From a virus (Duplodnaviria; Caudoviricetes): DNA of 64,000 bases. How positions within the stretch are numbered: position 1 is the stretch's first letter; each line of letters starts with the position of its first letter. The notes below the pieces were generated by a model. The model had not been told where the DNA came from. It saw only the letters and a program-made list of their open reading frames with translations, and ran no database searches. The DNA lies in IMG/VR virus record IMGVR_UViG_3300025909_000005, one strand, 5' to 3'. Made by a program: the position numbers and the translations under genes. Shown one piece after another: positions 39,577 to 64,000 of this stretch.

Positions 39577-40221
39577 ATGCCAAACGCAGTTGTAAAGAGC
39601 TACGCCAAGAAGACTGGAAAGTCGCCTGAGCACATCGAAGGATGGTGGAAGGAGGCCGAGAAGGAAGCCAAGAAGAAGTTCCCAAAGAAGGGCCCTCACT
39701 ACTGGGCGTACGTGAACGGCATCGTGAAGCGCCGTGGTGGCATCAAGGAGGTCATCGGCTTCCGTGACTTCGTTGACCTGCTCTCAGAAGAGGATGGCGG
39801 TGAGAAGGAGTCAGCGCTCTCCAAGATGTCCAAGGAACACGGTCCTGTCCTGGACAGGATCGAGAAGATCAAGGACCTTGGGCGCACCTTCGACAAGGCT
39901 CTCAAGGCTGACGGAGATGAGAAGGCGAAGGGCAACTACGCGCACTGGCTGAAGACGACCGACAAGTACCGAGTCGCCTACTTCACCGACACCGATCTCG
40001 ACATTGAAACCGTCCTCGTCTTCCGCGGCCACAAGTGCTTCGGCCTGGCATCGAAGAACGACAGCGACGCAATCATCGACTTCAAGTTCGTGCCAATGGA
40101 ACGCAGCGACTGGCAGGCGATCGAGGACTTCAGCTTGGACAACCTTGACTCCTCGGCTACAATCACTGATGAGAACCTCGACCACTATGTTGAGATGATT
40201 CTCCAGGCCACTCATAAATAA
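39577..40221 (+). CDS. hypothetical protein
   Basis: SD AAGGA; basic N-terminal half. Confidence 0.7.
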   Translation: MPNAVVKSYAKKTGKSPEHIEGWWKEAEKEAKKKFPKKGPHYWAYVNGIVKRRGGIKEVIGFRDFVDLLSEEDGGEKESALSKMSKEHGPVLDRIEKIKDLGRTFDKALKADGDEKAKGNYAHWLKTTDKYRVAYFTDTDLDIETVLVFRGHKCFGLASKNDSDAIIDFKFVPMERSDWQAIEDFSLDNLDSSATITDENLDHYVEMILQATHK

Positions 40222-40260
40222 ACCAGAGCACAGGTTGAGGCCTGTGCTATAATAGAAACA

Positions 40261-40560
40261 TACTGCAGCAATGCAGTTGTATTGTCGTAATTCGGCATGA
40301 CTTGAAGGATTTGAGACGCGGGTTCGATTCCCGCCGGCTCCACCACAAATCATCTTAGCAAGAACCTTACGCCAACGTTGTGGCAAGGAAAGCAGCAAGG
40401 GTGATTTGTCATGGGGCCGACCAGGCTATCGATCAGGTTACGGAGATGATTGACGCGACACGTCGTAGTGACGTTAAAAACTCGTCTAGTAAACGCAAAC
40501 GACTCCAACTACGCGATCGCCGCTTAATAACCGGCCCGCGCGCGGCATAAGCCACCGTGT
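40261..40560 (+). ncRNA. ssrA: circularly permuted (two-piece) tmRNA: acceptor piece ending CCA at 40345, intervening segment, coding piece from G40413; tag ANDSNYAIAA at 40495-40524
   Basis: GACGCGGGTTCGATTCCCGCCGGCTCCACCA precedes GGGGCCGA; 7-bp acceptor stem with G3.U70; P2 pairing TCAGGTTA/TGACTTGA; TATAAT at 40248; outer ends approximate. Confidence 0.88.
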
Positions 40561-40574
40561 AAAAGAATGAGCTA

Positions 40575-40615
40575 GGACGGACCCGAGGAGCAATCTTTGG
40601 GTCCGTCTGCCTTTC
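40575..40615 (+). terminator. terminator-like hairpin after tmRNA
   Basis: GGACGGACCC...GGGTCCGTCT hairpin. Confidence 0.5.
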
Positions 40616-40676
40616 CAGGTCGATGGACCTGACTTTCGCTTCCATCGTAAATACGTTCAACTTCAAAGGAGTTGAG

Positions 40677-41111
40677 ATGATGACCCACCTTCTGGCCGCT
40701 GTAGTTGCAGTTGGCCTGGCCGCAGCAACACCCACACCTCGTCAACCCGTGTGGGATGACATAGCGAGTTCGAAGGTGTTCAAGATCAGTCTGGACCTAA
40801 AGTCGGTAGACGTCAAGGCAGACAACACGGTTCATTCTCAGCTGAAGGTCACGTACAACGTGCCCATCCCTGTGAAGGGAAAGAAGAAGACAGGGCACTA
40901 CTACATCGAGCAGGTAACTGCAGACTGCGGTGCCGACAAGCTCGTCGTGACTGGTGCCACACTGTTCTCAAAGGACGGTGAGCCTTTGGCGCAAGACGAC
41001 CACCTCAACATGGACCTGCCAAACAACCACATCGATGGCACGTTTGTCACGAGCTTCATGGACCTCATGTGTAACGGCGGCAAAAATACGATTCCTGCGA
41101 TCAACGTTTGA
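40677..41111 (+). CDS. secreted protein (adhesin-E-like beta protein)
   Basis: signal peptide, two Cys, TAAATA at 40648. Confidence 0.65.
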   Translation: MMTHLLAAVVAVGLAAATPTPRQPVWDDIASSKVFKISLDLKSVDVKADNTVHSQLKVTYNVPIPVKGKKKTGHYYIEQVTADCGADKLVVTGATLFSKDGEPLAQDDHLNMDLPNNHIDGTFVTSFMDLMCNGGKNTIPAINV

Positions 41112-41140
41112 GTTATAATGACTCATCGACGGTAAATACT

Positions 41141-41259
41141 GAAGGATGTTGTAGCTCACCGGGAGAGCGGCCCCGAGGACGGGGTGTCCAATCATGTTCA
41201 GTCGGGTTCGCCCGTCATGCGTGATAGCGTAGGTGGTTCGATTCCATCCACAACCTTCA
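41141..41259 (+). ncRNA. tRNA-like element with expanded central region; identity undetermined
   Basis: D-arm GCTC/GAGC and T-arm GGTGG-TTCGATT-CCATC present; no canonical anticodon arm. Confidence 0.4.
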
Positions 41260-41274
41260 GTGTTATTGTTCGAC

Positions 41275-41346
41275 GCCTCGGTAGCTCAGTGGTAGAGCGG
41301 ATGCCTCTAAAACGTCGGGTCGTGGGTTCGATTCCCACCCGGGGCA
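41275..41346 (+). tRNA. amber suppressor tRNA, anticodon CUA (copy 1; CCA not encoded)
   Basis: GCCTCGG/CCGGGGC acceptor; anticodon loop CT-CTA-AA; canonical D and T arms; C-A mismatch at 31:39. Confidence 0.85.
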
Positions 41347-41355
41347 CAGATAAGG

Positions 41356-41568
41356 ATGACCATGGGACGTAGACTTTCCCTGCATGAAATGAATGCCATC
41401 AGGCATGAGGACGATGTTCGCAACTCGCAGATCAAGCGAGGCGAATGGAAGCCGAAGACAAACAACAACTATCACTGCGTGTGTGGTTGTGGTGCGTTCG
41501 CATGCGTGTTCGTGAGCTCAATTCCGCAGACGGTCCTGCCCATGGACGAACGATCAAATGTCTCTTAG
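41356..41568 (+). CDS. small Cys-containing protein between the two suppressor tRNAs
   Basis: SD AAGGA; HCVCGCG; stop TAG lies inside the downstream tRNA. Confidence 0.55.
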   Translation: MTMGRRLSLHEMNAIRHEDDVRNSQIKRGEWKPKTNNNYHCVCGCGAFACVFVSSIPQTVLPMDERSNVS

Positions 41569-41634
41569 CTCAATGGGTAGAGCGACGGTCTCTAAAACCG
41601 TATGTTCCGGGTTCGAGCCCCGGAGGGACGGCCA
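41559..41634 (+). tRNA. amber suppressor tRNA, anticodon CUA (copy 2)
   Basis: perfect anticodon stem ACGGT/ACCGT, loop CT-CTA-AA; weak T1.G72, G73, CCA encoded. Confidence 0.9.
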
Positions 41635-41637
41635 AAC

Positions 41638-41883
41638 ATGTCTGCATTGAAGCGTATCGTTGCTGAGGCTGACGCCGACCCGAAAGGGTACGAGAAGGTG
41701 AATGACTTCTGGCAACAGTTCTTCGACTCGGTAAAGTTCGACAAGGTGAATGACACCGCCATGGTCGAATTTCGCGTCGAGCTGAACATGATCGACGAGG
41801 TGCGTGAGCTGCAGGAAGACCTGGAAAATTTCGAGCAGCTCGAGGCTCAGTTTCGACATCAAATCTCTGGAGACCAGAAGTGA
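41638..41883 (+). CDS. DADPxGY-family paralog 1
   Basis: MSALKRIVAEADADPKGY. Confidence 0.65.
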   Translation: MSALKRIVAEADADPKGYEKVNDFWQQFFDSVKFDKVNDTAMVEFRVELNMIDEVRELQEDLENFEQLEAQFRHQISGDQK

Positions 41884-42059
41884 AGCGCGTTACCATCACC
41901 GATGTCAAGCTACCTGACGCAGCGATCGAGGTGTACAAGATGTACGCCAAGCTGCTGAAGGACCAGGGGAAGTCTGTTCCCGAGCACGAAGAACTGCTGG
42001 AGTACGGCGAGTACTTCAACGTTCGTCTGAACGCAGACGGAACGTGGGAGCTGGTGTAA
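41880..42059 (+). CDS. hypothetical protein (59 aa)
   Basis: GTGA overlap. Confidence 0.55.
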   Translation: MKRVTITDVKLPDAAIEVYKMYAKLLKDQGKSVPEHEELLEYGEYFNVRLNADGTWELV

Positions 42060-42065
42060 TCTAGT

Positions 42066-42094
42066 GTGTACTTCCCGGGGACGGGTAGTATAAT
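42066..42094 (+). promoter_or_regulatory. promoter GTGTAC-N17-TATAAT
   Basis: direct sequence reading. Confidence 0.6.
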
Positions 42095-42100
42095 GGCTTC

Positions 42101-42358
42101 ATGAACAAACACATCCTCAAGCTGCTCGAAGAGATCAACAAGCGCAACACCACGCTGCGTGACATCTTCAAGATGAACGTCGAGGTCTACGACCTGACGA
42201 AGCCCCTGACGAACGAGGAGATCGACAAGCTCCTCGTCCACTGCGAGGTCGAGCTCTCTCCCGAGGTCCTCACCTGCGACGGCGAACGCCGTGTTCCGAA
42301 GGGTCGTGTCGCCATGCTGACGAAGGCGCAGGAAGCCCTGCGTGCCGCGAAGCAATGA
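42101..42358 (+). CDS. hypothetical protein
   Basis: 85 aa. Confidence 0.65.
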   Translation: MNKHILKLLEEINKRNTTLRDIFKMNVEVYDLTKPLTNEEIDKLLVHCEVELSPEVLTCDGERRVPKGRVAMLTKAQEALRAAKQ

Positions 42359-42678
42359 GCATCCTCGGCCGACTCGCTGCAGCCGCTGACGCGGACCCGG
42401 AAGGGTACAAGAGGGCGACGCAGCCGAAGTTCGACTTCTGGAAGGCGGGCCGCGGGAAGACGAGCATTCGACTGCTTGAGGAGCTTGCTGGCGACTTCAA
42501 CATTGACACGCACATGTTTCAATTGGAACGATCACGCGTGATCACTGAGACGGCCCGAGGTATTCAACAGGACATGCTCCGCTACCTTGAGAATGATCTT
42601 GCGATCACCAATGCTCTGATGCCGCGCCAGCGCGCGATCTTGAGCATTGACACCTCTGGTTCGATGGGGCAGCTGTGA
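42355..42678 (+). CDS. DADPxGY-family paralog 2
   Basis: MSILGRLAAAADADPEGY. Confidence 0.7.
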   Translation: MSILGRLAAAADADPEGYKRATQPKFDFWKAGRGKTSIRLLEELAGDFNIDTHMFQLERSRVITETARGIQQDMLRYLENDLAITNALMPRQRAILSIDTSGSMGQL

Positions 42679-42989
42679 GCACACTCTCAAGGATCATCGC
42701 AGCTGCTGATGCAGACCCTGAGGGGTACGAGTCCGCAACGACGCCGCTCTACAACCGGCTTCTTAAGGCGTTAGGCAAAGTGGAGATTCGTTCGATTTTA
42801 ACGCCTCAGCTTTCAGATCAGCACATCGGTCGTGGCTGGCGTCAACTGGCAGATGTACTGCTGATTGCGCCACCGCGAACAGGCAAGTCTGCGATCCGCA
42901 ACGAGCTGATCGTGCTGCGCAGCAAAGAGCGACCTGCGTCTCCGAATGTTCATTTCGACCCACAGTGGTACAATAAATACATCGACTAA
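42675..42989 (+). CDS. DADPxGY-family paralog 3
   Basis: MSTLSRIIAAADADPEGY. Confidence 0.7.
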   Translation: MSTLSRIIAAADADPEGYESATTPLYNRLLKALGKVEIRSILTPQLSDQHIGRGWRQLADVLLIAPPRTGKSAIRNELIVLRSKERPASPNVHFDPQWYNKYID

Positions 42990-43141
42990 CAAGTTGTAGT
43001 TCCGATCAACAACCGACGAGGCACCCGAAATGTAAGTCCGACCCTGAGTTTCATCACACAGGCTAACGATTTTGAGTTTCGAGTTTCATGGGAACCTTCT
43101 CCATGGTAAAAAGGTTCCCCAACTTCCCAAGGAAGACCATC

Positions 43142-43498
43142 ATGCAATCGTAGATCCGCGAAGACGCCAAGACCTATCTGTACACCATCTCTCGCCGCGA
43201 CATCCCTCTCGCGCAACAAGCTGTGCAAGCCGGCCACGCCGCCCTTGAACACGCTTACCTCTACGGCCGTCCGGCCGACCATCACCCCTCCTACATTCAC
43301 CTGACGATTCGAGACAAGGAACGGCTCGAGAAGCAACGGCGTGCGCTCCAAGAAGCTGGCATTCCGACGGCCGAGTTCCACGAACCGTACAAGGACTGGG
43401 GTCTCACCGCCATTTCCTGCCTCCTCACCGAGGAACAACGTCACCACCTGAAGGGGCTCCAGCTGTGGCGCCTCCCCACCCAAGGAGAAGAAGCATGA
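43142..43498 (+). CDS. Pth2-like peptidyl-tRNA hydrolase with in-frame TAG at codon 4 (43151-43153); needs amber readthrough
   Basis: SD AAGGA then ATG CAA TCG TAG ATC...; YTISRRDIPLAQQAVQAGHAA...F.EP...LTAI matches the Pth2 fold, with its first strand upstream of the ORF-track start at 43223. Confidence 0.75.
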
Positions 43499-43899
43499 AC
43501 TACACCATCATTGTCCATGAAGAAGCCCGCCATGGTTACGACCGCTGCGGCGACGGCTGGAACGAACCTGGCACCTTCGAGGTGTTCTGCACCTCTGATC
43601 AAACCGAGTTCGTGAAGAAGTGGGCTGAGTTCGACCTGAAGCAGCCATCCGGTTGCTGGGACGACTTCCAGATCCTGTACGATGGCGTGCCGACGGAATT
43701 CGATGACGCGCACTACGAGCTGGAGCGACTCAAGGACATCGAGTACGCCGCGCTGAAGAAGCAGGCCGAGGCAGACAAGCTGGAGGCGAAGCGTCGCGCC
43801 GAGGAAGAAGCCAGGGTGAAGGCGGCTCGTGCCGTCGAAGCTCAACGACAAGCAGACCTCGCGCAGCTCGAGGCCCTCAAAAAGAAGCTGGGAGTCTAA
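43495..43899 (+). CDS. hypothetical protein with coiled-coil C-terminus
   Basis: ATGA overlap, SD GGAG. Confidence 0.7.
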   Translation: MNYTIIVHEEARHGYDRCGDGWNEPGTFEVFCTSDQTEFVKKWAEFDLKQPSGCWDDFQILYDGVPTEFDDAHYELERLKDIEYAALKKQAEADKLEAKRRAEEEARVKAARAVEAQRQADLAQLEALKKKLGV

Positions 43900-43900
43900 C

Positions 43901-44425
43901 ATGAAGATTACGTACAAGGAAAATCCGCTGGCAACCGTCATCGAGCTCGATGACCATGAGAAGGAGGTCATGCGCCTGAAGCTCAAGCTGGAGATCTACG
44001 AGGACCGTGCCTTCGCCGCCCACTGGGCCCTCGCAAACATTGGCAACGAGCTGCGTGGTCAGATTCGAACGAAGGACATGGCCATCGAGCAGGCCATGAA
44101 GGAACTTGACCCTGACTACTTGCTTGCTGAGGATGGTGAGGGTATCGAGAAGCGGACTGACGATCTACTGACGTGGTACCTTCAGGAACTCCAGTCATGG
44201 CACGACGGTGACTGCACGGCCTTCCCCGCGTCTTGCTGCAAGTGCCATGCCGAGGACATGCTTGGTCTCAATACGATCAAGGGAATTGGCAAGCACCAAG
44301 GGTACGCACTGAGCCAGTACTTCGCCCGTGGTCGCACGCTCAATGAGCTCATCGAGGACGTGTCCCTGAAGCAGGAGCTTCGTGACTGGCTCAGTGAACA
44401 TCGCGAGCGGCTATCTAGCCACTAA
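43901..44425 (+). CDS. hypothetical protein
   Basis: SD GGAG; HDGDC..F..SCCKCH metal-binding-like motif. Confidence 0.7.
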   Translation: MKITYKENPLATVIELDDHEKEVMRLKLKLEIYEDRAFAAHWALANIGNELRGQIRTKDMAIEQAMKELDPDYLLAEDGEGIEKRTDDLLTWYLQELQSWHDGDCTAFPASCCKCHAEDMLGLNTIKGIGKHQGYALSQYFARGRTLNELIEDVSLKQELRDWLSEHRERLSSH

Positions 44426-44459
44426 TGCTATTACCCGCTCGCTCACTAAGGAAAGTAAC

Positions 44460-45029
44460 ATGACGTAGGTTTTCTCCCCCAAGCTGCAGGCTCTTCGTGA
44501 GAAGATGGCCGCCTGCAACCAGACCCAAGGCCAGACCATTCTCCAGCACGGCGAGTCCGTGGCCGAGTGGTACAAGGACCTGATTGGTGCACGCACACGT
44601 GAGTGGCGCCTGCCTGACTGGTTCGATCCCGCCCTCTTCGAGCTCTGCCCAGATGTGGGGACGATGGAGCGCTACCACATCTACCATGATTGTGGTAAGC
44701 CGTACTGCCGTACGGTTGACGAAGAAGGTCGTCAACACTTCCCTGACCATGCCCGTATCAGCGCCTCCATCTGGCGCGTGACCGGTGGCGACGCGGCTGT
44801 TGCTCGTCTCATCGAACACGACATGGACATGCACACCCTCAAGCCGGCAGATGCCGACACCTACCTGCACCTGGACATTGCTCCAGCTCTGCTTCTCACC
44901 GCCCTTGCTGAACTGCACTCCAACGCCGACATGTTCGGCGGGATCGAGAGCACGTCCTTCAAGATCAAGTTCAAGAACCTCAACAAGCTCGGCAACCGCC
45001 TCATCAACCGCATCAAGGAGATCGCATAA
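44460..45029 (+). CDS. HD-domain phosphohydrolase with in-frame TAG at codon 3 (44466-44468); needs amber readthrough
   Basis: SD AAGGA then ATG ACG TAG GTT TTC...in frame with ORF 44505; H...YHDCGKP...HFPDHA...IEHDM HD motifs. Confidence 0.72.
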
Positions 45030-50148: not shown

Positions 50149-50223
50149 GGGTCCTTAGCTCAGCGGTAGAGCCCCTCCCTTACAAGGAGATTGTCGTAGG
50201 TTCGATCCCTACAGGACCCACCA
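50149..50223 (+). tRNA. tRNA-Val(UAC)
   Basis: cloverleaf, loop CT-TAC-AA, CCA. Confidence 0.85.
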
Positions 50224-50291
50224 TATCAAAGCGCTCCATGGTAGCGTAAGTCTTTTCATGCGGCCGCCGGTCGAGCGTTTTGATATGGTAA

Positions 50292-50416
50292 GGTGTTTGT
50301 GGGCAAGAGACGAAGCCGCCTGCGATTAAGTGGGTTCCAAGTCAATGAGTAGCGTCACCCTTGGGGTCGCGAAAAGCGAGCAAACACGCTGGTTTGAATC
50401 CAGCCAAACACCACCA
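50292..50416 (+). ncRNA. tRNA-like RNA with about 55-nt expansion; identity undetermined
   Basis: acceptor GGTGTTTG/CAAACACC-A-CCA and T-arm present; anticodon arm non-canonical. Confidence 0.5.
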
Positions 50417-50514
50417 TATCAAAGCACACTCGGTTGTGGCAAGATCAACCAACGTCTGCAGCGTATCCTGCCCAAGGGATCGTGGTTGCGCCTAGTGTGC
50501 TTTGATATGGTAAT

Positions 50515-50603
50515 GTACGTGCTGTCCTAGGAGAGATAAGTGGATTGTAAATCCGCGGCATAAAAGTAAGTCTGAGTGGGTTCGAATCCCACCGCGTACA
50601 CCA
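50515..50603 (+). tRNA. tRNA-Tyr(GUA)
   Basis: loop TT-GTA-AA, long variable arm, CCA. Confidence 0.75.
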
Positions 50604-50612
50604 ACAGAATTT

Positions 50613-50688
50613 GGGCTTGTAGTATTGGGGTTACGGCAGCGCCTTGCAAGTGCTGTGTCAGTGGGGTTCGATTCCCCCCAGGTCCACC
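50613..50688 (+). tRNA. tRNA-Ala(UGC), atypical
   Basis: G3.U70, loop CT-TGC-AA, CCA. Confidence 0.7.
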
Positions 50689-50796
50689 AAAATTCGCTGC
50701 GGCAACGGTCCTTCATGACGACTGCAGAGAAATGGAACATGAAGGCTGGTCGAACTACCTCCTTGCGAGACCTGCAAAATAAATCGTGGAGGTAAT

Positions 50797-50889
50797 GGAG
50801 ATGTTAGCCGAGTTGGCCTAGCGGCAGCGGTCTTGAAAACCGAAGGTTCAGAAATGGACGTGTGAGTTCGAGTCTCACCATCTCCGCCA
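50797..50889 (+). tRNA. tRNA-Ser(UGA)
   Basis: loop CT-TGA-AA, long variable arm, G73-CCA. Confidence 0.85.
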
Positions 50890-51103
50890 TTGAGTTTGTT
50901 TTGATCTAAGTGTGGCTATTGGTTGCTGACAAAGTTCTGCGCTGTCTAGAGCAAGGGACCGAATCGGTGGCTGATATCGTGAAGTTCAAGTAGGGTTCGA
51001 TTCCCAGCGGTTGAGGCCGTACAGGTGTCTTGCATGAATCGTTTGCCAGTCAGGAGCTAGACCTCCACCGATCCGTAACGGGCGCTTAGATCAAAACGAA
51101 TTT

Positions 51104-51179
51104 GGGGGATTAGCTCAGCTGGGAGAGCGGCTGCTTTGCAAGCAGTAGGTCAACGGTTCGATCCCGTTATTCTCCACCA
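51104..51179 (+). tRNA. tRNA-Ala(UGC)
   Basis: canonical bacterial-like tRNA-Ala with G3.U70. Confidence 0.92.
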
Positions 51180-51263
51180 AAACAAGAAGGTTGTAGGTAG
51201 ACGGTCTCTATGGCGCGTACCCGGAAGGGCAACGGCTACGAGTTGGAACCTTCACGAATAATT

Positions 51264-51340
51264 GTCGGGGTGGGAGAGTGGTCCATCCGAGGAGCTGCAA
51301 CCTCCTAGACGCATCGGTTCGATTCCGGCTCCCGACTCCA
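51264..51340 (+). tRNA. tRNA-Cys(GCA)
   Basis: loop CT-GCA-AC, U73-CCA. Confidence 0.85.
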
Positions 51341-51419
51341 AACATGCAACCGATCTGGCAGGCTTATCGGCAAAATATTCGCCTGTCAAACCTTTTTGTT
51401 GCACTTACACGAGACCTCG

Positions 51420-51815
51420 ATGATCTGCAAAGGCTGCGATAAGGAAACTTCGAATCTGAAATACTGTGACAATGCTTGTCAGCAAGTAGCTCAGACGAAG
51501 GCCAAAGTTGAAGCGTTCCTCGAAGGAAAATACGTCGGCAAATTCATGCAGTACGGGACCGGTTCCTGGCCGCGTAGAATGCTGATCGAACATTTTGGTT
51601 ACAAGTGCAATGCGCCGGGTTGCACTGTCGCTGATACGTGGCTAGGAAAACCAGTCACGTTGGAAGTGAACCACATTGATGGCATTGCGACAAACAATGT
51701 CCTAACGAATTTAGAATTCCTGTGCCCCACCTGTCACTCGCAGACGCCCAACTTTCGGGCTCTCAACAAGGTTTCAGTTAGAACGCACAGGAAGCCCCGA
51801 GCCCCTTTAGCATAG
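51420..51815 (+). CDS. HNH endonuclease (free-standing, in tRNA array)
   Basis: CKGC...YCDNAC; LEVNHIDG..TNNVLTNL..LCPTCH; stop TAG inside tRNA-Thr. Confidence 0.85.
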   Translation: MICKGCDKETSNLKYCDNACQQVAQTKAKVEAFLEGKYVGKFMQYGTGSWPRRMLIEHFGYKCNAPGCTVADTWLGKPVTLEVNHIDGIATNNVLTNLEFLCPTCHSQTPNFRALNKVSVRTHRKPRAPLA

Positions 51816-51875
51816 TGGCACTGCATCCGCCTTGTAAGCGGGAGATCGTCTGTTCGATTCAGACAAGGGGCACCA
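51801..51875 (+). tRNA. tRNA-Thr(UGU)
   Basis: loop CT-TGT-AA, CCA. Confidence 0.85.
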
Positions 51876-51883
51876 AGAATTTT

Positions 51884-51970
51884 GCGGTCGTGATGGAATT
51901 TGGTAGTCTTCACGCGTTGAGAACGCGTGGCTCTTAGAGCGTGCGGGTTCGACTCCCGCCTTCCGCACCA
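51884..51970 (+). tRNA. tRNA-Leu(GAG)
   Basis: loop TT-GAG-AA, long variable arm; pyrimidine mismatches at 5:68 and 6:67. Confidence 0.8.
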
Positions 51971-51976
51971 AGTTAT

Positions 51977-52055
51977 CTGTGTGTATTGTCAGTCTGGTTA
52001 GACGGCTGAGTTTGGAACTCGGAGGTCGCAGGTTCAAATCCTGCCACACAGACCA
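51977..52055 (+). tRNA. tRNA-Pro(UGG)
   Basis: C1-G72, loop TT-TGG-AA. Confidence 0.8.
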
Positions 52056-52083
52056 AGTTATTGTGATACAATGAAAGTTCAAT

Positions 52084-52160
<77 letters not shown>

Positions 52161-52215
52161 TTCACCTACTCGCGTGAAGTAAACGCAGCTGACATCTTCA
52201 ACAACGGAGTATGTC

Positions 52216-52497
52216 ATGCGAGTATCAGTGAAGCAAGTTGTTAACGTAGCATTCGCCCACCATGGCGCTCGTACGTTGTCTCCTGGCTGCCTTGGCGAAA
52301 ATCCTTCGGGATGGACGATCACAGGTGAAGTGATGGAAGACTACGTTGAGTGGGTCAACTACTTCGAAGCAACGCATCCTACTCTCGGGTGGGTACGCGG
52401 CGACTACGAAGGAATTGTCGAAGCGAAGTCGAAGAAGGCGTACGCGCACTTCATTGAACACCACCCTCCACAAGAGTGGGACTACTGGGACATCTAA
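52216..52497 (+). CDS. hypothetical protein
   Basis: 93 aa between tRNAs. Confidence 0.6.
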   Translation: MRVSVKQVVNVAFAHHGARTLSPGCLGENPSGWTITGEVMEDYVEWVNYFEATHPTLGWVRGDYEGIVEAKSKKAYAHFIEHHPPQEWDYWDI

Positions 52498-52566
52498 CGC
52501 CCTTCCTCTGCGTCATGAGGCTGCTTACCGCCAACGGGGAGAGCGTAAGTTAACAGTTGGATTTTA

Positions 52567-52642
52567 GCGGGCGTAATTCAGTTGGTAGAATGCTTCCTTG
52601 CCAAGGAAGTCGTCGTCGGTTCGAGTCCGATCACCCGCTCCA
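52567..52642 (+). tRNA. tRNA-Gly(GCC)
   Basis: canonical, U73-CCA. Confidence 0.92.
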
Positions 52643-52647
52643 AATTT

Positions 52648-53079
52648 ATGACACCAATCCAAGATTACATTCAGCTCCCACGAGAAACAAGACGTTCGCA
52701 TCTTGATCTCACTGCTGAGTGCTCGAAGATCGGTGGAACGTCGAAGGAGTTCAAAGGGCTTCTTGCTTACCATCTTGGAACAACGATTCCATCTGGTCGT
52801 CAAGTTTTCCTCTGCCATGCATGCCATAATGGAGCTTGCTCCAATGTCAAGCACCTCTACTGGGGAACTCCAAAGGACAACTACATTGACTGTGTAGAAG
52901 ATCGTGGAACACTCCATGAAAGAAGTTTGAAAATTCACGGTCAAGAGTTTCTTGCAAAGCGCTACACGAGTGGAAGCTCAGCAGGCGGAAAGGGAAATTC
53001 TGGAAGACCAAAATCCGAAGAGCACAAGCAAAAGATCGCTGAATCTCTGCGGAAGAAGAAAAATGCGGCTATGGTGTAG
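52648..53079 (+). CDS. HNH (His-Me finger) endonuclease
   Basis: LCHACHNGACSNVKHLYWGTPKDN; stop TAG inside tRNA-Gly. Confidence 0.8.
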   Translation: MTPIQDYIQLPRETRRSHLDLTAECSKIGGTSKEFKGLLAYHLGTTIPSGRQVFLCHACHNGACSNVKHLYWGTPKDNYIDCVEDRGTLHERSLKIHGQEFLAKRYTSGSSAGGKGNSGRPKSEEHKQKIAESLRKKKNAAMV

Positions 53080-53138
53080 TGGTAACCCATGACATTGCCA
53101 ATGTTAAGACGCGAGTTCGATTCTCGCTAGCCGCTCCA
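53065..53138 (+). tRNA. tRNA-Gly(GCC)
   Basis: loop TT-GCC-AA, U73-CCA. Confidence 0.88.
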
Positions 53139-53296
53139 AACACGTTCTGGTTTCGCTAATGAAGCGTAGTCAGATAGACAGACGATCCCGTGTAGTTCGT
53201 CTGCGACATGCGCCAGCACGGTGGAAAAGTCCACAACTGTGGCCAGCGAGCATTGCTGATTACGAGTAGGGAGTGAAGCTCCGCGGCCCTACACAT

Positions 53297-53383
53297 GCGG
53301 GTGTGGTCCATAGGCGGGCACCAGCCTTCCAAGCTGGCAGTGCGCAAGCACGCAAGTGGGTTCGAGTCCCATCACCCGCTCCA
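53297..53383 (+). tRNA. tRNA-Gly(UCC) with long variable arm
   Basis: loop CT-TCC-AA; GTGC-GCAA-GCAC variable hairpin. Confidence 0.8.
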
Positions 53384-53389
53384 AATTCT

Positions 53390-53475
53390 GGGTTCTGAGC
53401 AGCACTGGCGACTGCACCGGACTGTAAATCCGACGCCTTCGGGCATACTTGGTTCGACTCCAAGAGGACCCACCA
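53390..53475 (+). tRNA. tRNA-Tyr(GUA)
   Basis: loop CT-GTA-AA, long variable arm. Confidence 0.88.
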
Positions 53476-53480
53476 AATTT

Positions 53481-53555
53481 GCGGGAGTAGCTCAGTGAAA
53501 GAGCAGCCGGTGTATAACCGGACGGTCGTAGGTTCAAGTCCTACCTCCCGCACCA
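53481..53555 (+). tRNA. tRNA with atypical anticodon loop (TGTATAA; possibly UAU)
   Basis: good acceptor, D and T arms plus CCA; lacks U33 in the 7-nt loop reading. Confidence 0.6.
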
Positions 53556-53840
53556 GGAATTTCAGAAGTACATGCCGCGGCGGAAGCACGACGGCTCCAA
53601 GAATTCCCACGTGGCGGCGTGAATCCGCTAGTTTGTATAGTCTGTCACTTAACATGACTTTCGTCGCCATTACGTTACTGGTAGGCGTCAACTCAGGACC
53701 CCTGGCTTTCGACTCAAAATCGAAGGAGATACGAAGCTGCTGATGTCGGTGTTGTGAGAACCTTTTCGTTAGGGGAACTCTCTAGGTGCTTGAGCCAAAT
53801 CTCTTGAAGTCGTGAGGGTGGAACCTGGCGCAGAAATTTC

Positions 53841-53957
53841 GGGGACCTAGCTCAGTAGGTAGAGCACTGGATGAAAACGTTGCTGCATAGGTCGACCTTC
53901 AATGCACAACGAAGTACGTACCGGCTGTCCGAGGTTCGAGCCCTCGGGTCCCCACCA
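53841..53957 (+). tRNA. tRNA-Phe(GAA) with 43-nt insertion 3' of the anticodon
   Basis: GGGGACC/GGTCCCC acceptor, loop AT-GAA-A, insert 53877-53919. Confidence 0.65.
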
Positions 53958-54110
53958 GAATTTGACAACCGATAGATTAGGATTATCATCCAAGCAGGTA
54001 TACGTAGGTTCGAATCCTACACGGTGCGCAAGTGCCGTTCGACAAGTGGTAAAGTCACCCGCCTCGCCGCAAGGCATTTTCCTGTCGCTCCTTTGTTGTC
54101 ACTTAGATTT

Positions 54111-54196
54111 GCGGTTGTGATGGAATCTGGTAGTCTTCCTGTGCTCAGAACGCAGGGCCTTCGGGCGTGTGGGTTCGAATCCCACCTTCCGCACCA
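54111..54196 (+). tRNA. tRNA-Leu(CAG)
   Basis: loop CT-CAG-AA; U.U mismatches at 5:68 and 6:67. Confidence 0.85.
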
Positions 54197-54613
54197 AACA
54201 AGTGTCCTACTCTAGGATTAGTCATAGGAACGACCGGGAAATCATAACCGGATGTAAGCAAACCTATGGAGTGAGAGAGGAATGAGATTTTCCTCACGAT
54301 TTAGCTCACGTACCATGTGTACGAGGAGTATACGGCATCGTTCTGCGATGCTAGCCTATTTGATTGATGCCCTTAGCGGGGACAGTGTGGTGGCACGGAT
54401 CGTTTTGCGGTAGTCACCTATGCATGAAGGTTCTTCCCAAGAGTAAGCAAACGTGAGGGGAGACGTCAATCACCAGTTGTCGTAACTGCAGCCTAAGGGT
54501 ATGCAGTACCGGCGCTTCGCCTGCCAATGGCTCCAGGTAGGGACGCACAGTGTGCCGAATCCGTTCAAGCCGGTTTGAGAATAAGGCTGCGTGCCGAATA
54601 TAGGACCACAATT

Positions 54614-54705
54614 GGAGACATGGCAGAGAGGCCGATTGCGCCGGTTTGCTAAACCGGAGATCCACGAAAGTGGGTCCGTGGGTTCGAATCCCACTGTCTC
54701 CTCCA
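54614..54705 (+). tRNA. tRNA-Ser(GCU)
   Basis: loop TT-GCT-AA, long variable arm. Confidence 0.88.
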
Positions 54706-54712
54706 GAATTTT

Positions 54713-54797
54713 GCACTCGTGGCGTAATTGGTAGCCGCGCTAGCTTGAGGTGCTAGAGGGGAAACCCGTGCTGGTTCGAGTCCAGTCGAGTGCACCA
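54713..54797 (+). tRNA. tRNA-Leu(GAG)
   Basis: loop TT-GAG-GT, long variable arm. Confidence 0.88.
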
Positions 54798-54925
54798 GAA
54801 TGAACTCCCCTTCGAGGGAATCGCCGAACGTGGTAGGCGTAGAGCGCATGGCTAAGATCGATGATGCAGTGCGAGGCTAAGTAAAGACAACTCTTTCGGG
54901 TTATCAGACCAAACCCGACCAACAT

Positions 54926-55017
54926 GGAGAAATGGCAGAGAGGCCGATTGCACAACCTTGGAAAGGTTGAGACCGGGTCAAACCGGTCCGTGGGTTCGAA
55001 TCCCACTTTCTCCTCCA
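54926..55017 (+). tRNA. tRNA-Ser(GGA)
   Basis: loop TT-GGA-AA, long variable arm. Confidence 0.88.
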
Positions 55018-55133
55018 TGAAAGAAGACTGGCGTTCCATGCCCGGCCAAAAACCGTAATGCACATGAAAGTGTGGGGCTGTCAGGGAGAAATATGGTGGA
55101 AGTAAATCTCCTTCATCTTCATGAACAAGATTT

Positions 55134-55208
55134 CAGGGTGGGAGGCGTGTGGCAGCCGATGACGTCCGGAGCGTTGTAGTCAGGGTTCGACTCCCTGCAC
55201 CCTGACCA
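55134..55208 (+). tRNA. degenerate tRNA, possibly Pro(CGG)
   Basis: CAGGGTG/CACCCTG-A-CCA and T-arm; irregular D and anticodon arms. Confidence 0.5.
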
Positions 55209-55329
55209 GATTTACCTCGCGAGAGGGCTGCCCCTTGTCTACGGACCTGGGGACCAGCAAAGGAACAGCACATCGTGGTTTGCGGCTGTTCCCTTCACCA
55301 GCACAGGCTGGAGGAAGTCCACGAGATCA

Positions 55330-55405
55330 CGGTGCATGGAGTGAGAGGTTAACCGGCTGTGTAACATACAGTCTGATGTAGGTTCGAGTCCTACTGCACC
55401 GACCA
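55330..55405 (+). tRNA. atypical tRNA, loop GT-AAC-AT (possible AAC anticodon)
   Basis: CGGTGCA/TGCACCG-A-CCA and T-arm. Confidence 0.55.
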
Positions 55406-55410
55406 ATTTC

Positions 55411-55490
55411 GTTTCGATAGCTCAAGGGACAGAGCACGTGGCCCAAGAGGTAGGTACGATGGAAAGCGGTTCGACTCCGCAACGAAACAT
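55411..55490 (+). pseudogene. degenerate tRNA-like sequence
   Basis: TAGCTCAAGGGACAGAGC D-arm and GCGGTTCGACTCCGC T-arm; no clear anticodon arm or CCA. Confidence 0.4.
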
Positions 55491-55659
55491 CCAATTTGAA
55501 GCGTTAGCATGAGAGAATCCTGCATGCCTAATTGTCGTTTGTCCGAGGTCCGACTGGTTGTCGATGAACGATTACAGCGACGTGGATCGGCCGATCCTAG
55601 CTGTTTGTGACTACCTGGTTGTGGGGAGTAACGGTCCCACCGCTTCAATTCAATTTCAT

Positions 55660-55734
55660 GGGGGCAGCAATGGGTTGCGGTTCTCGCTGGCAGCGAGGAT
55701 GTCTAGACGAGTTCGATTCTCGCGGTCTCCACCA
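55660..55734 (+). tRNA. tRNA-Ala(GGC), atypical D-arm
   Basis: G3.U70, loop CT-GGC-AG, CCA. Confidence 0.7.
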
Positions 55735-56083
55735 GATTTGATCCAAGGCATTAGCCGCCCCTAGGCAAGTCCCAACGAAAGTTGAGGTGGAACGCAGTGT
55801 TGAAGCGTTGAGGATCGCCCGAACAAGTCACGGCTTGGAACTCCGCAGTGCGCCATGGAACTCTGCGTCGATAAGAGAAGGCAGTCGTGCACCAATTTGA
55901 GAGCTAGATGCGGATACGGGACACCCACGTCGGAAAACCCTTCCACCGCCATGACAGAACGTAGACGAGCTAGTGGATGCAGCATGAAACCTCGTAGGCG
56001 TGGTTGCCGTAGAGGAAGTTCCCTGCTCTAGGCCAACCTACGCAGGCAATCACTGCTCTCAATGAACATGGTATAATGAACTC

Positions 56084-56299
56084 ATGATCCTCTGCAGCTG
56101 CGCGAACATTCCTGAGAGCGTTGCTCGAGAGAAGCTTAAGACGCAAACGCTGTCTGAGTTCATGATCGAAACGAATTGCGCGATGCAGTGCGGCTCCTGC
56201 TGGCAGGACCTCCTTGACATCGCAGATGAATACGACAACCGATCGACCAGGGTTATCTCCCATTCGACAACCCCTGGTCAACCTCCTTCGTTGTCATGA
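56084..56299 (+). CDS. bfd: Bfd-like (2Fe-2S) ferredoxin
   Basis: MILCSC...CAMQCGSC (CxC...CxxC) pattern; TATAAT upstream. Confidence 0.8.
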   Translation: MILCSCANIPESVAREKLKTQTLSEFMIETNCAMQCGSCWQDLLDIADEYDNRSTRVISHSTTPGQPPSLS

Positions 56300-56303
56300 T
56301 TGC

Positions 56304-56380
56304 GCCCTTGTACGCTAATCGGCAGTGCGGCTCCCCTTAAAATGGAGTGGTTGTGGGCTCGAATCCCACCTTGGGCACCA
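56304..56380 (+). tRNA. tRNA-Leu(UAA) with short variable loop
   Basis: loop CT-TAA-AA; U.U mismatches at 5:68 and 6:67. Confidence 0.65.
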
Positions 56381-56566
56381 ACCCTGTTGGCAAATGTTAG
56401 AGCAACCGCTTGATCTTGGATTATCTACTTTTATTGGTTAAAAACCCGGATACGTTCGACTCGTGTCATCCCTTTATGCCGGTGCACGGAAGGGAATTCT
56501 CCAAATCGCCTTTTGTTGCCCTAACATTTGCCAATGATAAATAGTCCTCCAACAGGAGGACGATGA

Positions 56567-56911
56567 ATGTTGCTGAACGAACTGCTCGAGCTAAACGAAA
56601 TGGCCGAGCTTGAAGAACTCTTCGAGAAGGAATGGTCTGACGCGGTGACGCACCGCAAGCCAGGCACCTTCGCCCCAAAGGGAACGCACTCCAAGTCCGC
56701 TGAAGAGATCTTCAAGATCTACAAGCGACACAGGGTCTCTCCACATGGAGACGGCTCTGCAATTCAGATGCTGCAGTTCTTCATCAACCGTGCCGGAAAA
56801 CGTCTGAAGCCGGAACGGAAACAGGAACTTGAGAAGGCCATTCGAATGCTTCAGGCGGACAACGCCAAGATGAAGGCAGAGAAGAAGGCCAAGGAAAAGA
56901 AGGACGACTGA
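56567..56911 (+). CDS. DUF3175-like protein with MLLNELLE leader
   Basis: KEWS..VT...SAEEI...SAIQMLQFFINRAGK.L..ERK..LEKA; TAAATA at 56538. Confidence 0.75.
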   Translation: MLLNELLELNEMAELEELFEKEWSDAVTHRKPGTFAPKGTHSKSAEEIFKIYKRHRVSPHGDGSAIQMLQFFINRAGKRLKPERKQELEKAIRMLQADNAKMKAEKKAKEKKDD

Positions 56912-56915
56912 TTGT

Positions 56916-56989
56916 AGCGGGCGAGTGTGATGGTAGCACGTTGGGCTCATAACCCAGAGGGCCGGTTCGATTCCGAGGCGCCGCAACCA
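56916..56989 (+). tRNA. initiator-type tRNA-Met(CAU), irregular acceptor stem
   Basis: GGG/CCC anticodon stem with CT-CAT-AA; ACCA end. Confidence 0.7.
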
Positions 56990-57257
56990 AATCCGTAAGG
57001 ATCGTGGAGATTCGCACATCTCCTAGTATAAAGTGGGCGGCTCGCGACCGCAATGACTCGGCTACCTGAGACTTCCTAACGGTGCTCATACGCGGCTAAC
57101 AGAGTCCACGACGGGTCCTAGCCCGTCACGAACAAATGGCATGCAGACGTGTATGCAAAGTCCCACGCCGGAACCAAGGACCTTCACAGGCACCAAAGAC
57201 GGTGGGAAAAGGTGGGCGACGAACAGGGCAGAGCACCCTTCCTGTTTCACGAATTTA

Positions 57258-57336
57258 TGCGGAGGGCCGGCCAGCAGTCGGACGAGGTCTCATAAGCCAC
57301 GGTAAAGATGGGTGCGACTCCTAATCTCCGCTACCA
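57258..57336 (+). tRNA. degenerate tRNA-Met(CAU)-like
   Basis: CTCATAA loop and GCGGAG/CTCCGC acceptor with ACCA; poor T-arm. Confidence 0.4.
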
Positions 57337-57353
57337 TAACTAGAAGGAAGCCC

Positions 57354-57683
57354 ATGAAGAAGATCCTCCTCGCGCTCAGTGCGCTCGTCTCCATTTCCGC
57401 CCTGGCTGCTCCTCAAGCTCCGGCCCCACAAGGAAGCTTTGAAACCCGCCCCGGCTGTATCTGGTCTCATGACGTTGCGCGATGCGCCGTGGACAATCAC
57501 TCACGGGTAAACTTGAGCTGCACCGTGCATGTCTTCGGTCGCACCGAAAGGGGCTTCAAGATCGGCAACACACGCACCGTATCGGTTCCAGCCTTCAAGT
57601 ACAACGACGACGCTCGCCTCTATGCCGCTGAAGGCGACAAGCTCGTCAAGGTCGATGCAGAAGCAACCTGCTCGCCTGAATGA
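57354..57683 (+). CDS. secreted protein
   Basis: signal peptide; four Cys; SD AAGGA. Confidence 0.7.
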   Translation: MKKILLALSALVSISALAAPQAPAPQGSFETRPGCIWSHDVARCAVDNHSRVNLSCTVHVFGRTERGFKIGNTRTVSVPAFKYNDDARLYAAEGDKLVKVDAEATCSPE

Positions 57684-57692
57684 AAACGCGCG

Positions 57693-57765
57693 GTCTCGGT
57701 ATCTTAACTGGTAAAGACGCCTCCCTTATAAGGGGTAGATCTAGGTTCGAATCCTAGTCGAGACA
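57693..57765 (+). tRNA. tRNA-Ile(UAU) candidate (CCA not encoded)
   Basis: GTCTCGG/TCGAGAC, loop CT-TAT-AA. Confidence 0.7.
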
Positions 57766-57776
57766 CACAGAACAAC

Positions 57777-57853
57777 GCGGGTGTGACGCAATTGGTAGAC
57801 GTACTGGATTTAGAATCCAGGTCCTGAGGGTTCGAGTCCCTCCACCCGTACCA
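57777..57853 (+). tRNA. tRNA-Leu(UAG) with short variable loop
   Basis: loop TT-TAG-AA, CCA. Confidence 0.85.
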
Positions 57854-57858
57854 AACAT

Positions 57859-57948
57859 GGATTGTGCGGAGCATGGCGCTCAACTGCCCTCGAAAAGCAG
57901 CGTGTCGGTGATGAGCCGGCAGGGGTTCGATTCCTCCACTCTCCGCCA
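57859..57948 (+). tRNA. tRNA-Ser(CGA)
   Basis: loop CT-CGA-AA, long variable arm, G73-CCA; pyrimidine mismatches at 4:69 and 5:68. Confidence 0.75.
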
Positions 57949-58093
57949 AGATATGGAAGACGCGGCGTCGAAACCGCGTGGTAGTTCGGCCGAACGGTCC
58001 GGTAGCGGGTGGCCACCTGCGAAAGACTTAGAACCTGATTTGGCTCGCGGGGTTCGACTCCTCGCAGGTAAAACCAACTTCCATTTGAACTCT

Positions 58094-58171
58094 GCCCTTG
58101 TACGCTAATTGGAAGACGCGCGCGAGCTCAAACCTCGTGGGTTGTCGGTTCGAATCCGACCTTGGGTACCA
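58094..58171 (+). tRNA. tRNA-Leu(CAA) with short variable loop
   Basis: loop CT-CAA-AC; U.U mismatches at 5:68 and 6:67. Confidence 0.75.
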
Positions 58172-58995: not shown

Positions 58996-59310
58996 ATGAT
59001 GGACAACAAGAATCCACCGGACGTACCTCAGCAGCCTGAAACTGAGGAAGAAAAGCTGAAGCGTCTCCAGCAAGAAGCTGAGATTCGCAAGGTTGGCCCG
59101 AACGCACCTGACGTTCACACGGGCGATGACACCGTTGGGGTTGGCATGCCAGCTGCACAGCCAGTTTCGCAAGGCAACTCCCTTCCACAGTCAGCCATTC
59201 CTGTGAAGAGCAAGTTCGAAGGAGCCGACTTCTACAACCCACAGGATGCAGAGAACTCTGCCATCCAGAAGGAGCGCGCTAATAGCGGCGCCCAGAAGAC
59301 GGAGGAGTAA
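58996..59310 (+). CDS. hydrophilic low-complexity protein
   Basis: SD AAGGAG. Confidence 0.7.
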   Translation: MMDNKNPPDVPQQPETEEEKLKRLQQEAEIRKVGPNAPDVHTGDDTVGVGMPAAQPVSQGNSLPQSAIPVKSKFEGADFYNPQDAENSAIQKERANSGAQKTEE

Positions 59311-59756
59311 TGGACGCAATTCAACTCCTGATCGATGACCACAACGCGGTCAAAGAGAAGTTTGCGCAGTTCGAACACATCGACAACTTGAACAACGCCG
59401 ACGAGAAGATCACGCTGTCACACGAGATCTGTGCTGCTCTAGCCACTCACATGGCGATCGAGGAAGAGCTCTTCTACCCGGCTGCTCGTGCCCTCTTCGA
59501 CGACAAGGACGATGAACTCGTCGATGACGCCGTGAAGGAACACAAGCACGCTCGCTCGTTGATGAAGGACATTCAGACTCTTGAGGTCGGTGTTCGCCTC
59601 AATCTCGAGATGAAGGCGCTCAAGCTCATGATCGAAGACCACGTCAAGGACGAGGAAGGCACCATGTTCCCTAAGCTTCGTCAGCTTGGCATGGAGACGA
59701 CCCAGCTCGGTGAAAAGATGGCTCAACGAAAGAAGGAACTTTCACCGAACGTGTGA
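59310..59756 (+). CDS. hemerythrin (HHE) domain protein
   Basis: DAI.LL..DH..V...F...H...EEE.FYPA...EH....H...EE..MFP. Confidence 0.85.
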   Translation: MDAIQLLIDDHNAVKEKFAQFEHIDNLNNADEKITLSHEICAALATHMAIEEELFYPAARALFDDKDDELVDDAVKEHKHARSLMKDIQTLEVGVRLNLEMKALKLMIEDHVKDEEGTMFPKLRQLGMETTQLGEKMAQRKKELSPNV

Positions 59757-59769
59757 TATAATCACCACA

Positions 59770-60172: not shown

Positions 60173-60314
60173 CCTTTTACAAACACATCTCCATAAAAGA
60201 AGCAGATGAAGCACTTGTCCCTGCTAAATACTAGCAAGGATGAAGTTGAGATTCTTCCCGAATGCCGGTTCCCTCACGGACCCGAGAAGCATTCCAACCT
60301 TTTAAGGAGATGAC

Positions 60315-60875: not shown

Positions 60876-60985
60876 GAAAGATGGGAGGGCTTCGGCTCTC
60901 CCACTTCAGCCCAGGGAGGGCCAGCCACCAAGATGATGGTGGCCAGTGATGTGAAGACGGAGAGTGTTTCCGTCGGGAGACCATC

Positions 60986-61270: not shown

Positions 61271-61298
61271 ATAGAAGTTCCAGATACAGGAGACTTAC

Positions 61299-61550: not shown

Positions 61551-61618
61551 CAAACTTTGAGATGATAGACATAGACTCCAATCCTTGGAGCCCATGTTCA
61601 ATTGATGAAGGAATTACC

Positions 61619-62131: not shown

Positions 62132-62175
62132 ATCTACGGAGGGGCTTTCGCCTCTCCTAGAAGTTCTCACTAACC

Positions 62176-62757: not shown

Positions 62758-62775
62758 CGACGTCGCAAAGACACC

Positions 62776-63986: not shown

Positions 63987-64000
63987 TCATGCGTACCTAC

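Follow-up and report, generated by a model that had tools for sequence, protein, structure and literature searches.

In Streptomyces, the tRNA-Leu(UAA) (tRNA, transfer RNA) specified by bldA gates TTA-containing genes such as adpA, and in phage lambda the stand-alone bar minigenes (AUG-AUA-stop) give rise to peptidyl-tRNA drop-off, being toxic only when Pth is limiting. In the case of prfB, which encodes release factor 2, an early UGA bypassed by a +1 frameshift serves to sense the release factor. In recoded phages (crAss-like, Lak, and others), TAG is read as Gln, as in code 15 (bioRxiv 10.1101/2021.08.26.457843, PMC9523058); these phages carry their own tRNA(CUA) or tRNA(UCA), and in-frame stops have been proposed to regulate particular genes. 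For Xanthomonas phage XacN1, which has two tRNA-CUA genes, the authors extended the genes of the genome past their amber stops (N = 18) and identified no targets (PMC5852040), and the role of the suppressor tRNA of Klebsiella phage phiKp24 was left open (PMC8386662). Here we analyzed a stretch of 64,000 nucleotides (the window) from the virus record IMGVR_UViG_3300025909_000005 (Duplodnaviria; Caudoviricetes), in which two genes, encoding a Pth2-like and an HD-type protein, carry an in-frame TAG within their first four codons and are located downstream of two tRNA genes with CUA anticodons. Comparisons with related phages suggest that both genes are probably fully translated only by read-through via the phage suppressor tRNAs, their output being tied to the suppressor activity. 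No published description of this arrangement of gates and suppressors was found in full-text literature searches.

The locus resembles each of these systems in part. As with bldA, one specialized tRNA would gate a few genes carrying its codon; however, bldA reads a rare sense codon, whereas the codon involved here is a stop, for which the tRNA would compete with the release factor, and a single small mobile module comprises both the tRNA and its targets. With prfB it shares a conserved early in-frame stop which would sense its own decoding, as well as a product belonging to the termination/tRNA-recycling machinery, but the frame is unchanged and it is a dedicated suppressor tRNA that would be sensed. 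The leader has the composition of a bar minigene (a Shine-Dalgarno (SD) sequence, AUG, one or two codons, and a stop), except that it continues in frame into a conserved protein instead of standing alone. Recoded phages have hundreds of in-frame stops distributed across their late genes and a reassigned code, whereas the phages studied here use the standard code and show a single stop among the initial codons of one or two genes for tRNA-end enzymes, in a stop-purine-U-pyrimidine (stop-R-U-Y) context. XacN1 is likewise a jumbo phage using the standard code, and it has two tRNA(CUA) and an HD-Pth2 fusion gene placed behind SD-ATG-AAG-TAG; the early stop upstream of this gene (ORF364) is unannotated, and its authors reported no targets.

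The initial annotation, which was made from the letters of the window alone, had proposed two intact tRNA genes with CUA anticodons and two genes in which a good SD sequence and an ATG are immediately followed by an in-frame TAG, and all four were recovered using ARAGORN, Rfam, and the sequence itself (Table 1). The gated genes lie 1.5–3 kb downstream of the tRNA(CUA) pair, on the same strand, with five small open reading frames (ORFs) in between, and the SD-to-ATG spacing amounts to six bases in the Pth2-like gene and five in the HD-type gene. Among the 250 TAGs present on the + strand of the window, only these two occur in a configuration consisting of an SD-preceded start, a few codons, TAG, and a long coding frame, and none was found to join two coding halves. 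Both suppressor tRNAs have a seven-base anticodon loop (C-U-C-U-A-A-A) with U33 and a purine at position 37.

Table 1. Positions of the suppressor tRNA genes, the gated genes and the tmRNA in the window.
Feature	Position	Strand	Details
Gate of gene 1	43129..43153	+	SD AAGGAAG 43129-43135, ATG 43142, CAA, TCG, TAG 43151-43153, then ATC
Gate of gene 2	44448..44468	+	SD AAGGAAA 44448-44454, ATG 44460, ACG, TAG 44466-44468, then GTT
Pth2-fold gene (P0001)	43142..43498	+	118 codons, in-frame TAG at codon 4
HD-type phosphohydrolase-like gene (P0002)	44460..45029	+	189 codons, in-frame TAG at codon 3
Suppressor tRNA 1	41275..41347	+	anticodon CUA; ARAGORN; Rfam tRNA model 62.4 bits
Suppressor tRNA 2	41559..41634	+	anticodon CUA; ARAGORN; Rfam tRNA model 61.9 bits
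Permuted two-piece tmRNA	40181..40618	+	betaproteobacterial type; tag peptide ANDSNYAIAA

The premature stops in themselves, and nothing further, might suggest nonsense mutations or sequencing errors in decaying pseudogenes, a reading to which we attach a negligible probability. Both TAGs are present in the independent 7.9 kb contig L001 (98–99% identical), dozens of diverged phages have a stop at the corresponding site, and the protein encoded downstream of the stop is under strong purifying selection. Support at the level of the reads was sought in Logan contigs of rhizosphere metagenomes, where independent DNA contigs span both gates and no change there figures among the differences listed. 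A metatranscriptome contig of 263 nucleotides (43008-43269) was set aside: its single substitution could not be placed, and it shows neither transcription nor an intact UAG.

Orthologues of the two genes were identified in related jumbo-phage contigs (100–370 kb, 66–83% protein identity), and nearly all of them are gated, although their leaders differ. In the Pth2-like family, the leaders read ML-stop-IS, MHKL-stop-IS, MK-stop-VQ, MKGAKV-stop-IT, MKL-stop-NL, MSL-stop-IS, MKK-stop-VE, MNA-stop-VS, MKS-stop-VS, and MQS-stop-IS; in the HD family, they read MT-stop-V.., MTM-stop-T, MK-stop-VK, and MQMNAHHL-stop-VL, and leaders of 11–14 codons also occur. The start of the HD gene, ATG-ACG-TAG-GTx, is common to the window, L001, L004, L006/7, L008, and L012. 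When the HD alignment was used as the seed of a second scan, 79 further loci were obtained from phages with G+C contents of 24–62%. The distinct gated 5' ends number 80 in total, and at all 80 sites the start and the stop share the reading frame of the gene; the stop is located at codons 2–9 in the automated tally and at codons 11–14 in four further HD leaders. After hand correction, 58 of the 67 distinct HD sequences were found to be gated. The homologous genes were checked for a stop kept at the same place, and the early stop is conserved in both families.

The public records of these genes often start at the next GTG or ATG, giving forms of 88–92 and 174 amino acids, and gene callers truncate, miss, or split the genes, or silently translate the stop as Gln. 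The Gln found at the gate position in database homologues (P0004-P0047 and others) was rejected as an artefact of this kind, TAG having been translated under code 15; since it was the gene caller that translated TAG as Q, this letter says nothing about the residue inserted. Inferences drawn at the level of single residues from the public protein records of these families are unsafe.

In the clade to which the window belongs, every locus with sufficient flanking sequence has a tRNA-CUA gene no more than 10 kb away from the gated genes. An apparent exception, L006/7, carries 170 nucleotides upstream of the gene a tRNA-CUA with an odd T-loop, which was found using Rfam and missed by ARAGORN. In many relatives, the tRNA is located only 30–200 nucleotides from the gated gene, upstream or downstream of it and on the same strand, so that the two are probably co-transcribed. 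In L011/G002, a complete genome of 342.6 kb, both genes have TGA (MES-TGA-VTQ and MTWS-TGA-VT), and two tRNA-UCA genes and no tRNA-CUA are present. The HD gene is also TGA-gated in L139, where a tRNA-UCA is present in the locus, and in L137, where two tRNA-UCA genes occur elsewhere in the record; a maximum-likelihood tree of the HD proteins indicates at least two origins of the TGA state. Within 10 kb on either side of the gates, the pairs of stop and anticodon were TAG with CUA in 39 cases, TAG with UCA in one, TGA with UCA in three, and TGA with CUA in none (Fisher p = 3e-4, counted on gene instances, relatedness being ignored). Three other automatic calls of TGA gates were discarded as false positives, a normal ATG being present just ahead of the core. 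In the phages compared, the stop codon and the suppressor anticodon change together. Together with the conservation of the stops, this covariation strongly supports the suggestion made in the initial annotation that two genes for translation and RNA-end enzymes would be gated by phage suppressors.

The gates also have a common sequence context. The base following the stop (+4) is a purine at 73 of the 80 sites and the next one (+5) is U at 65; the commonest codons after the stop are ATT (29), GTT (14), AAC (6), ATC (5), and GTA (5). A purine followed by U occurs after 61 of the 80 gates, as compared with 109 of 1371 ordinary gene ends in four related genomes, and this signal persists in the high-G+C subset of gates. 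The shared context is stop-R-U-Y, and it is rare at ordinary gene ends. Since the two protein families are unrelated, the context looks like the result of selection on the messenger RNA (mRNA). In studies on amber suppression in Escherichia coli by Bossi and by Miller and Albertini, a 3' purine is said to favor suppression over release.

Suppression of these stops could also form part of a wider reassignment of TAG in this lineage, resembling code 15, of which the two gates would be just two instances among many. The presence of suppressor tRNAs and the rarity of TAG as a stop in the window would fit this picture, as would the public protein sets in which gene callers applied code 15 and rendered these TAGs as Q. 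A crude gene call in the window gave 91 genes, 57 of which end with TGA, 33 with TAA, and one with TAG; the three TAG gene ends listed in the initial annotation (893, 7041, and 12279) are plausible, which makes between 1 and 3 of about 90 genes. The claim that TAG is scarce as a real stop therefore holds in the window (1–3%), but not across the relatives, where TAG accounts for 4–12% of the stops. Genome-wide scans were performed on three complete or near-complete relatives (G001, G002, and G004): crude gene calls under the standard code cover 85–87% of each genome, and 15, 29, and 50 genes, respectively, end with TAG. The frames behind the TAG-ended genes of the complete relatives are no more often coding than those behind TAA-ended ones, and in 66 loci the gain in ORF cover obtained by opening TAG does not exceed that obtained by opening TGA.

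No other in-frame TAG occurs inside the coding regions of the window, and the stops occur in two gene families only, within the first codons. When the relatives were scanned genome-wide for ATG, SD, and the matching stop, the HD gene alone was recovered; the Pth2-like gene had been missed by the caller, and its gate was confirmed by hand in the complete relatives scanned. A scan for mid-gene stops with coding sequence on either side gave too much noise and was not used. Code 15 is recognized by many genes having in-frame TAGs and being fragmented under code 11, which is the case neither in the window nor in its relatives. A wider reassignment seems very improbable in view of these data. The view put forward in the initial annotation, namely a targeted gating rather than a genome-wide recoding, agrees with the standard code used by the relatives. 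The putatively suppressed stop is confined to two gene families, with no genome-wide recoding, and on the basis of these comparisons wider recoding and sequencing error are both essentially excluded.

Searches with tblastn showed that the genes are also present in cultured jumbo phages, namely Ralstonia phage RsoM2USA, Serratia phage BF, Acinetobacter phage ME3, and Xanthomonas phage XacN1. In RsoM2USA both genes are gated (ML-stop-IS and MKS-stop-IS) and a tRNA-CUA is located 13 kb away, while ME3 has MT-stop-IH with a tRNA-CUA 450 nucleotides upstream. Serratia phage BF has an annotated tRNA-Sup and an unannotated Pth2-like gene starting with MTH-stop-ND; its HD gene (L098, NC_041917.1 286418-286984) is split by a TAG at codon 47 (GGA TAG GGC), in the middle of the domain, and appears in the annotation as two short hypothetical ORFs, gp515 and gp514. 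In XacN1, ORF364 (L104, AP018399.1 ~243735-244595) is an HD-Pth2 fusion, and the sequence GAGGA...ATG AAG TAG is present in the same frame, 21 bases upstream of the annotated ATG. ORF364 is a candidate target of the two tRNA-CUA genes of this phage. The closest cultured relative infects Ralstonia, and the metagenomes concerned are from the rhizosphere and soil.

The Pth2-like protein gave no Pfam hit (PF01981) and no sequence or profile hit in the PDB; its comparison with the PF01981-bearing fusion P0236 using hhalign was not significant, and it matched only families of unknown function in PHROGs. It was modelled by AlphaFold with a mean confidence (predicted local distance difference test, pLDDT) of 92, the gate being located within a low-confidence N-terminal tail. 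The top 14 Foldseek matches of this model are archaeal and eukaryotic Pth2 proteins (1wn2, 3erj, 2zv3, 1xty, 1q7s), with a probability of 1.0 and template-modelling (TM) scores of 0.61–0.73, apart from 2gax, a related protein of unknown function. The label "Pth2-like" used in the initial annotation is thus borne out at the level of the fold, whereas no match to the sequence family was obtained, and the hydrolase activity is putative. The invariant residues Y14 and D20 and the strand 11-18 are all encoded upstream of the next canonical start, GTG 43223, so that the product of 91 amino acids starting there would lack core elements.

In the HD-type protein, the Pfam HD domain (PF01966) scored 18.5 bits, below the cut-off of 22. 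The residues H30, H76, D77, K80, H93, H97, D121, D123, and H125 are invariant in 37 sequences, and the metal-ligand pattern H...HD...H...D is present, with the motif YHxYHDCGKP. A profile hit to class II tRNA nucleotidyltransferase was obtained (E 0.004). The model has a pLDDT of 97, with a confident helix (7-18) spanning the stretch ahead of Met16, and its best Foldseek matches are the class II tRNA nucleotidyltransferases 3wfo-3wfs (TM 0.57–0.65), generic HD enzymes giving TM scores of 0.35–0.48. The HD assignment stands at the level of the motif and probably at that of the fold, the Pfam score being below the threshold. Fusions of Pth2 and HD occur in both orders, in phages and in bacteria (P0219, P0236; XacN1 ORF364; phage fusions). 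Around the bacterial Pth2-HD fusion P0236, on a 1 Mb contig, no suppressor tRNA was found within 6 kb and no clear gate was observed, and in distant phages with ungated Pth2-like genes a tRNA-CUA is present directly 3' of the gene. The common theme is that tRNA 3'-end and ribosome-rescue chemistry is tied to the suppressor tRNA.

In the mechanism we propose, ribosomes initiating at the strong SD-ATG of either gene would encounter UAG 2–3 codons later, and the full-length Pth2-fold and HD-type enzymes would be made only when the phage tRNA(CUA) decodes this UAG in frame. The gate stop would then act as a sensor of the suppressor activity, the enzyme output being proportional to the amount of functional suppressor tRNA. 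Because the gate codon sits in an unstructured N-terminal tail, the identity of the residue inserted would matter little. The stop-R-U-Y context probably makes the gate stops permissive for the suppressor, whereas termination would be normal at ordinary gene ends. We infer both the occurrence of read-through and its dependence on these tRNAs from the sequence comparisons; read-through would be needed for function, since Y14, D20, and the first strand precede the next start in the Pth2-like gene and since the TAG of the Serratia phage BF gene lies in mid-domain.

Several observations weigh against this mechanism. No suppressor tRNA occurs within 10 kb on either side of 34 distinct TAG-gated ends; in five of these records, a strict pattern search detected a tRNA-CUA elsewhere in two and none in three. 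In one of these three, L123, which is 97% complete and has a TAG-gated HD gene, no tRNA-CUA was detected by the strict pattern search, and the tRNA at 7959-8034, called UCA and having G in place of U33, constitutes the one mismatch to the covariation rule. Suppressor tRNA 1 of the window has no encoded CCA and belongs to a stretch that is swapped out in strain variants. In addition, an efficient suppressor blind to context would harm the phage proteome, because TAG and TGA end ordinary genes: TGA ends 221 of the 409 genes (54%) in the tRNA-UCA phage G002 and TAG 4–12% of the genes in the CUA relatives, so that suppression must be weak or bound to context.

The harm that an efficient suppressor would do to the phage's own genes also speaks for an attenuator throttling expression, in which the start and stop of the leader would form a minute upstream ORF, translation would re-initiate just past the stop or at Met16 of the HD protein, and the suppressor tRNAs would serve other purposes. 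In agreement with this, 39 of the 80 codons following the stop are AUU, AUC, AUA, or AUG, i.e., rare or canonical starts, which again counts against read-through; the HD gene keeps an in-frame ATG (44505, Met16 in the window) 12–13 codons past the stop, from which a short form could arise by re-initiation in the absence of suppression, and the annotated ATG of XacN1 follows the TAG by only 4 codons. An attenuator, however, leaves unexplained why TGA gates occur with tRNA-UCA only and TAG gates almost always with tRNA-CUA. Furthermore, GUU, GUA, GUC, and AAC, which follow the stop at 29 of the 80 sites, are not start codons, the Pth2-like gene has no conserved start ahead of its invariant residues, the TAG of the Serratia phage BF gene is at codon 47, and the upstream ATG and the gene invariably share one reading frame. 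We regard re-initiation, the strongest of the alternatives to read-through, as an unlikely explanation.

It was suggested in the initial annotation that the enzymes are made only once the suppressor tRNAs are expressed or when the release factor RF1 of the host is limiting. In such a late switch, early mRNAs would be locked until a burst of suppressor tRNA or a drop in RF1, and the drop-off caused by the minigenes would be relieved by the Pth produced. The leader does have the form of a bar-type minigene and the product a Pth2 fold, and in the window the tRNAs and the genes are 1.5–3 kb apart. In many relatives, on the other hand, the closeness and common orientation of the tRNA and the gated gene make their co-transcription probable, and the promoters named for the switch (TATAAT at 41114 and TAAATA at 41133) were absent from the output of a consensus promoter scan. 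This temporal scheme appears quite unlikely.

As regards the purpose of gating by read-through, we favor, as a speculation, a closed or feed-forward loop in which the enzymes would act on the suppressor tRNA or clear the by-products of suppression, and the neighboring phage transfer-messenger RNA (tmRNA) fits the latter role. A more specific version, in which the gated enzymes would deacylate the same suppressor tRNA or trim or repair its 3' end and thus provide closed-loop control, is put forward only tentatively, and we hold it to be rather doubtful.

The window is phage-like, with a G+C content of 57% and nearly all the genes on the + strand, and it contains 27 tRNA genes and one permuted tmRNA (ARAGORN, Rfam). 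The latter was detected by ARAGORN at 40253-40618 and by the Rfam models beta_tmRNA (91.9 bits) and tmRNA_permuted (102 bits), and a tmRNA directly upstream of the suppressor/Pth2/HD module was also found in L005, L006/7, L008, L010, and L011. Between the tmRNA and the tRNAs, the ORF 40623-41111 (+) shows a borderline match to Pfam surface adhesin protein E (PF16747, 23.9 bits, cut-off 23.7).

Suppressor tRNA 1 has the discriminator A73 and a 3' end (...GGGGCA) followed by CAG, so that CCA is not encoded; it would require a CCA-adding enzyme, which is of note beside a gene resembling an HD module of the nucleotidyltransferase type. It is most similar to tRNA-CUA genes of related phages (76–77% identity), and in strain variants (contigs from two other metagenomes) the segment 41134-41362, which includes it, is replaced by 111 other bases. 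Suppressor tRNA 2 has the pair U1-G72 and G73, and CCA is encoded in it and in most of the orthologues. Attempts at deducing the amino-acid identity of the suppressor tRNAs from their likeness to other phage tRNAs gave ambiguous results, which were not used; a weak blastn likeness of suppressor tRNA 2 to a mycobacteriophage tRNA-Trp likewise led to no assignment.

Just upstream of suppressor tRNA 1, a tRNA-like element (41138-41262, +) shows a long acceptor-like stem, D and T arms (GGUGG-UUCGAUU-CCAUC), a long extra arm, and a 6-bp stem with a 4-base loop in place of the anticodon loop; it had no ARAGORN or Rfam match, and the z-score of its fold is only -1.6. Three small paralogous ORFs (41638-41883, 42355-42678, and 42675-42989, +) located between the tRNAs and the Pth2-like gene have the N-terminal motif (I/L)xAxADADP(K/E)GY in common and no Pfam or PHROG match. 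Further downstream, an array of 24 tRNA genes (50149-58171) includes two calls of tRNA-Ile with the anticodon UAU (53481-53555 and 57693-57766, +), which is unusual for bacteria; a weak additional tRNA at 56920-56983 was detected by Rfam (30 bits) and not called by ARAGORN. A non-coding gap of 558 bases (59757-60314) gave no match at E <= 0.01 when 59000-64000 was compared with all the Rfam families using cmscan.

Many standard-code jumbo phages carry suppressor tRNAs, the targets of which are unknown in the genome papers (PMC5852040; PMC8386662). The present finding provides them with concrete targets that are conserved, and what these tRNAs act upon can now be tested in cultured phages. If the mechanism proposed here is true, these phages would have a natural one-codon translational switch keyed by a tRNA, existing in orthogonal amber and opal versions and having a defined read-through context, which would bear on the takeover of host translation by phages and on synthetic biology. 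If closed-loop control by the gated enzymes were also true, a phage using the standard code could maintain the activity of a stop-codon suppressor at a safe set point, and stop-R-U-Y would be a bacterial read-through signal. Read-through confined to these genes would also bear on the evolution of stop-codon reassignment, of which it may represent a first step toward the recoded phages.

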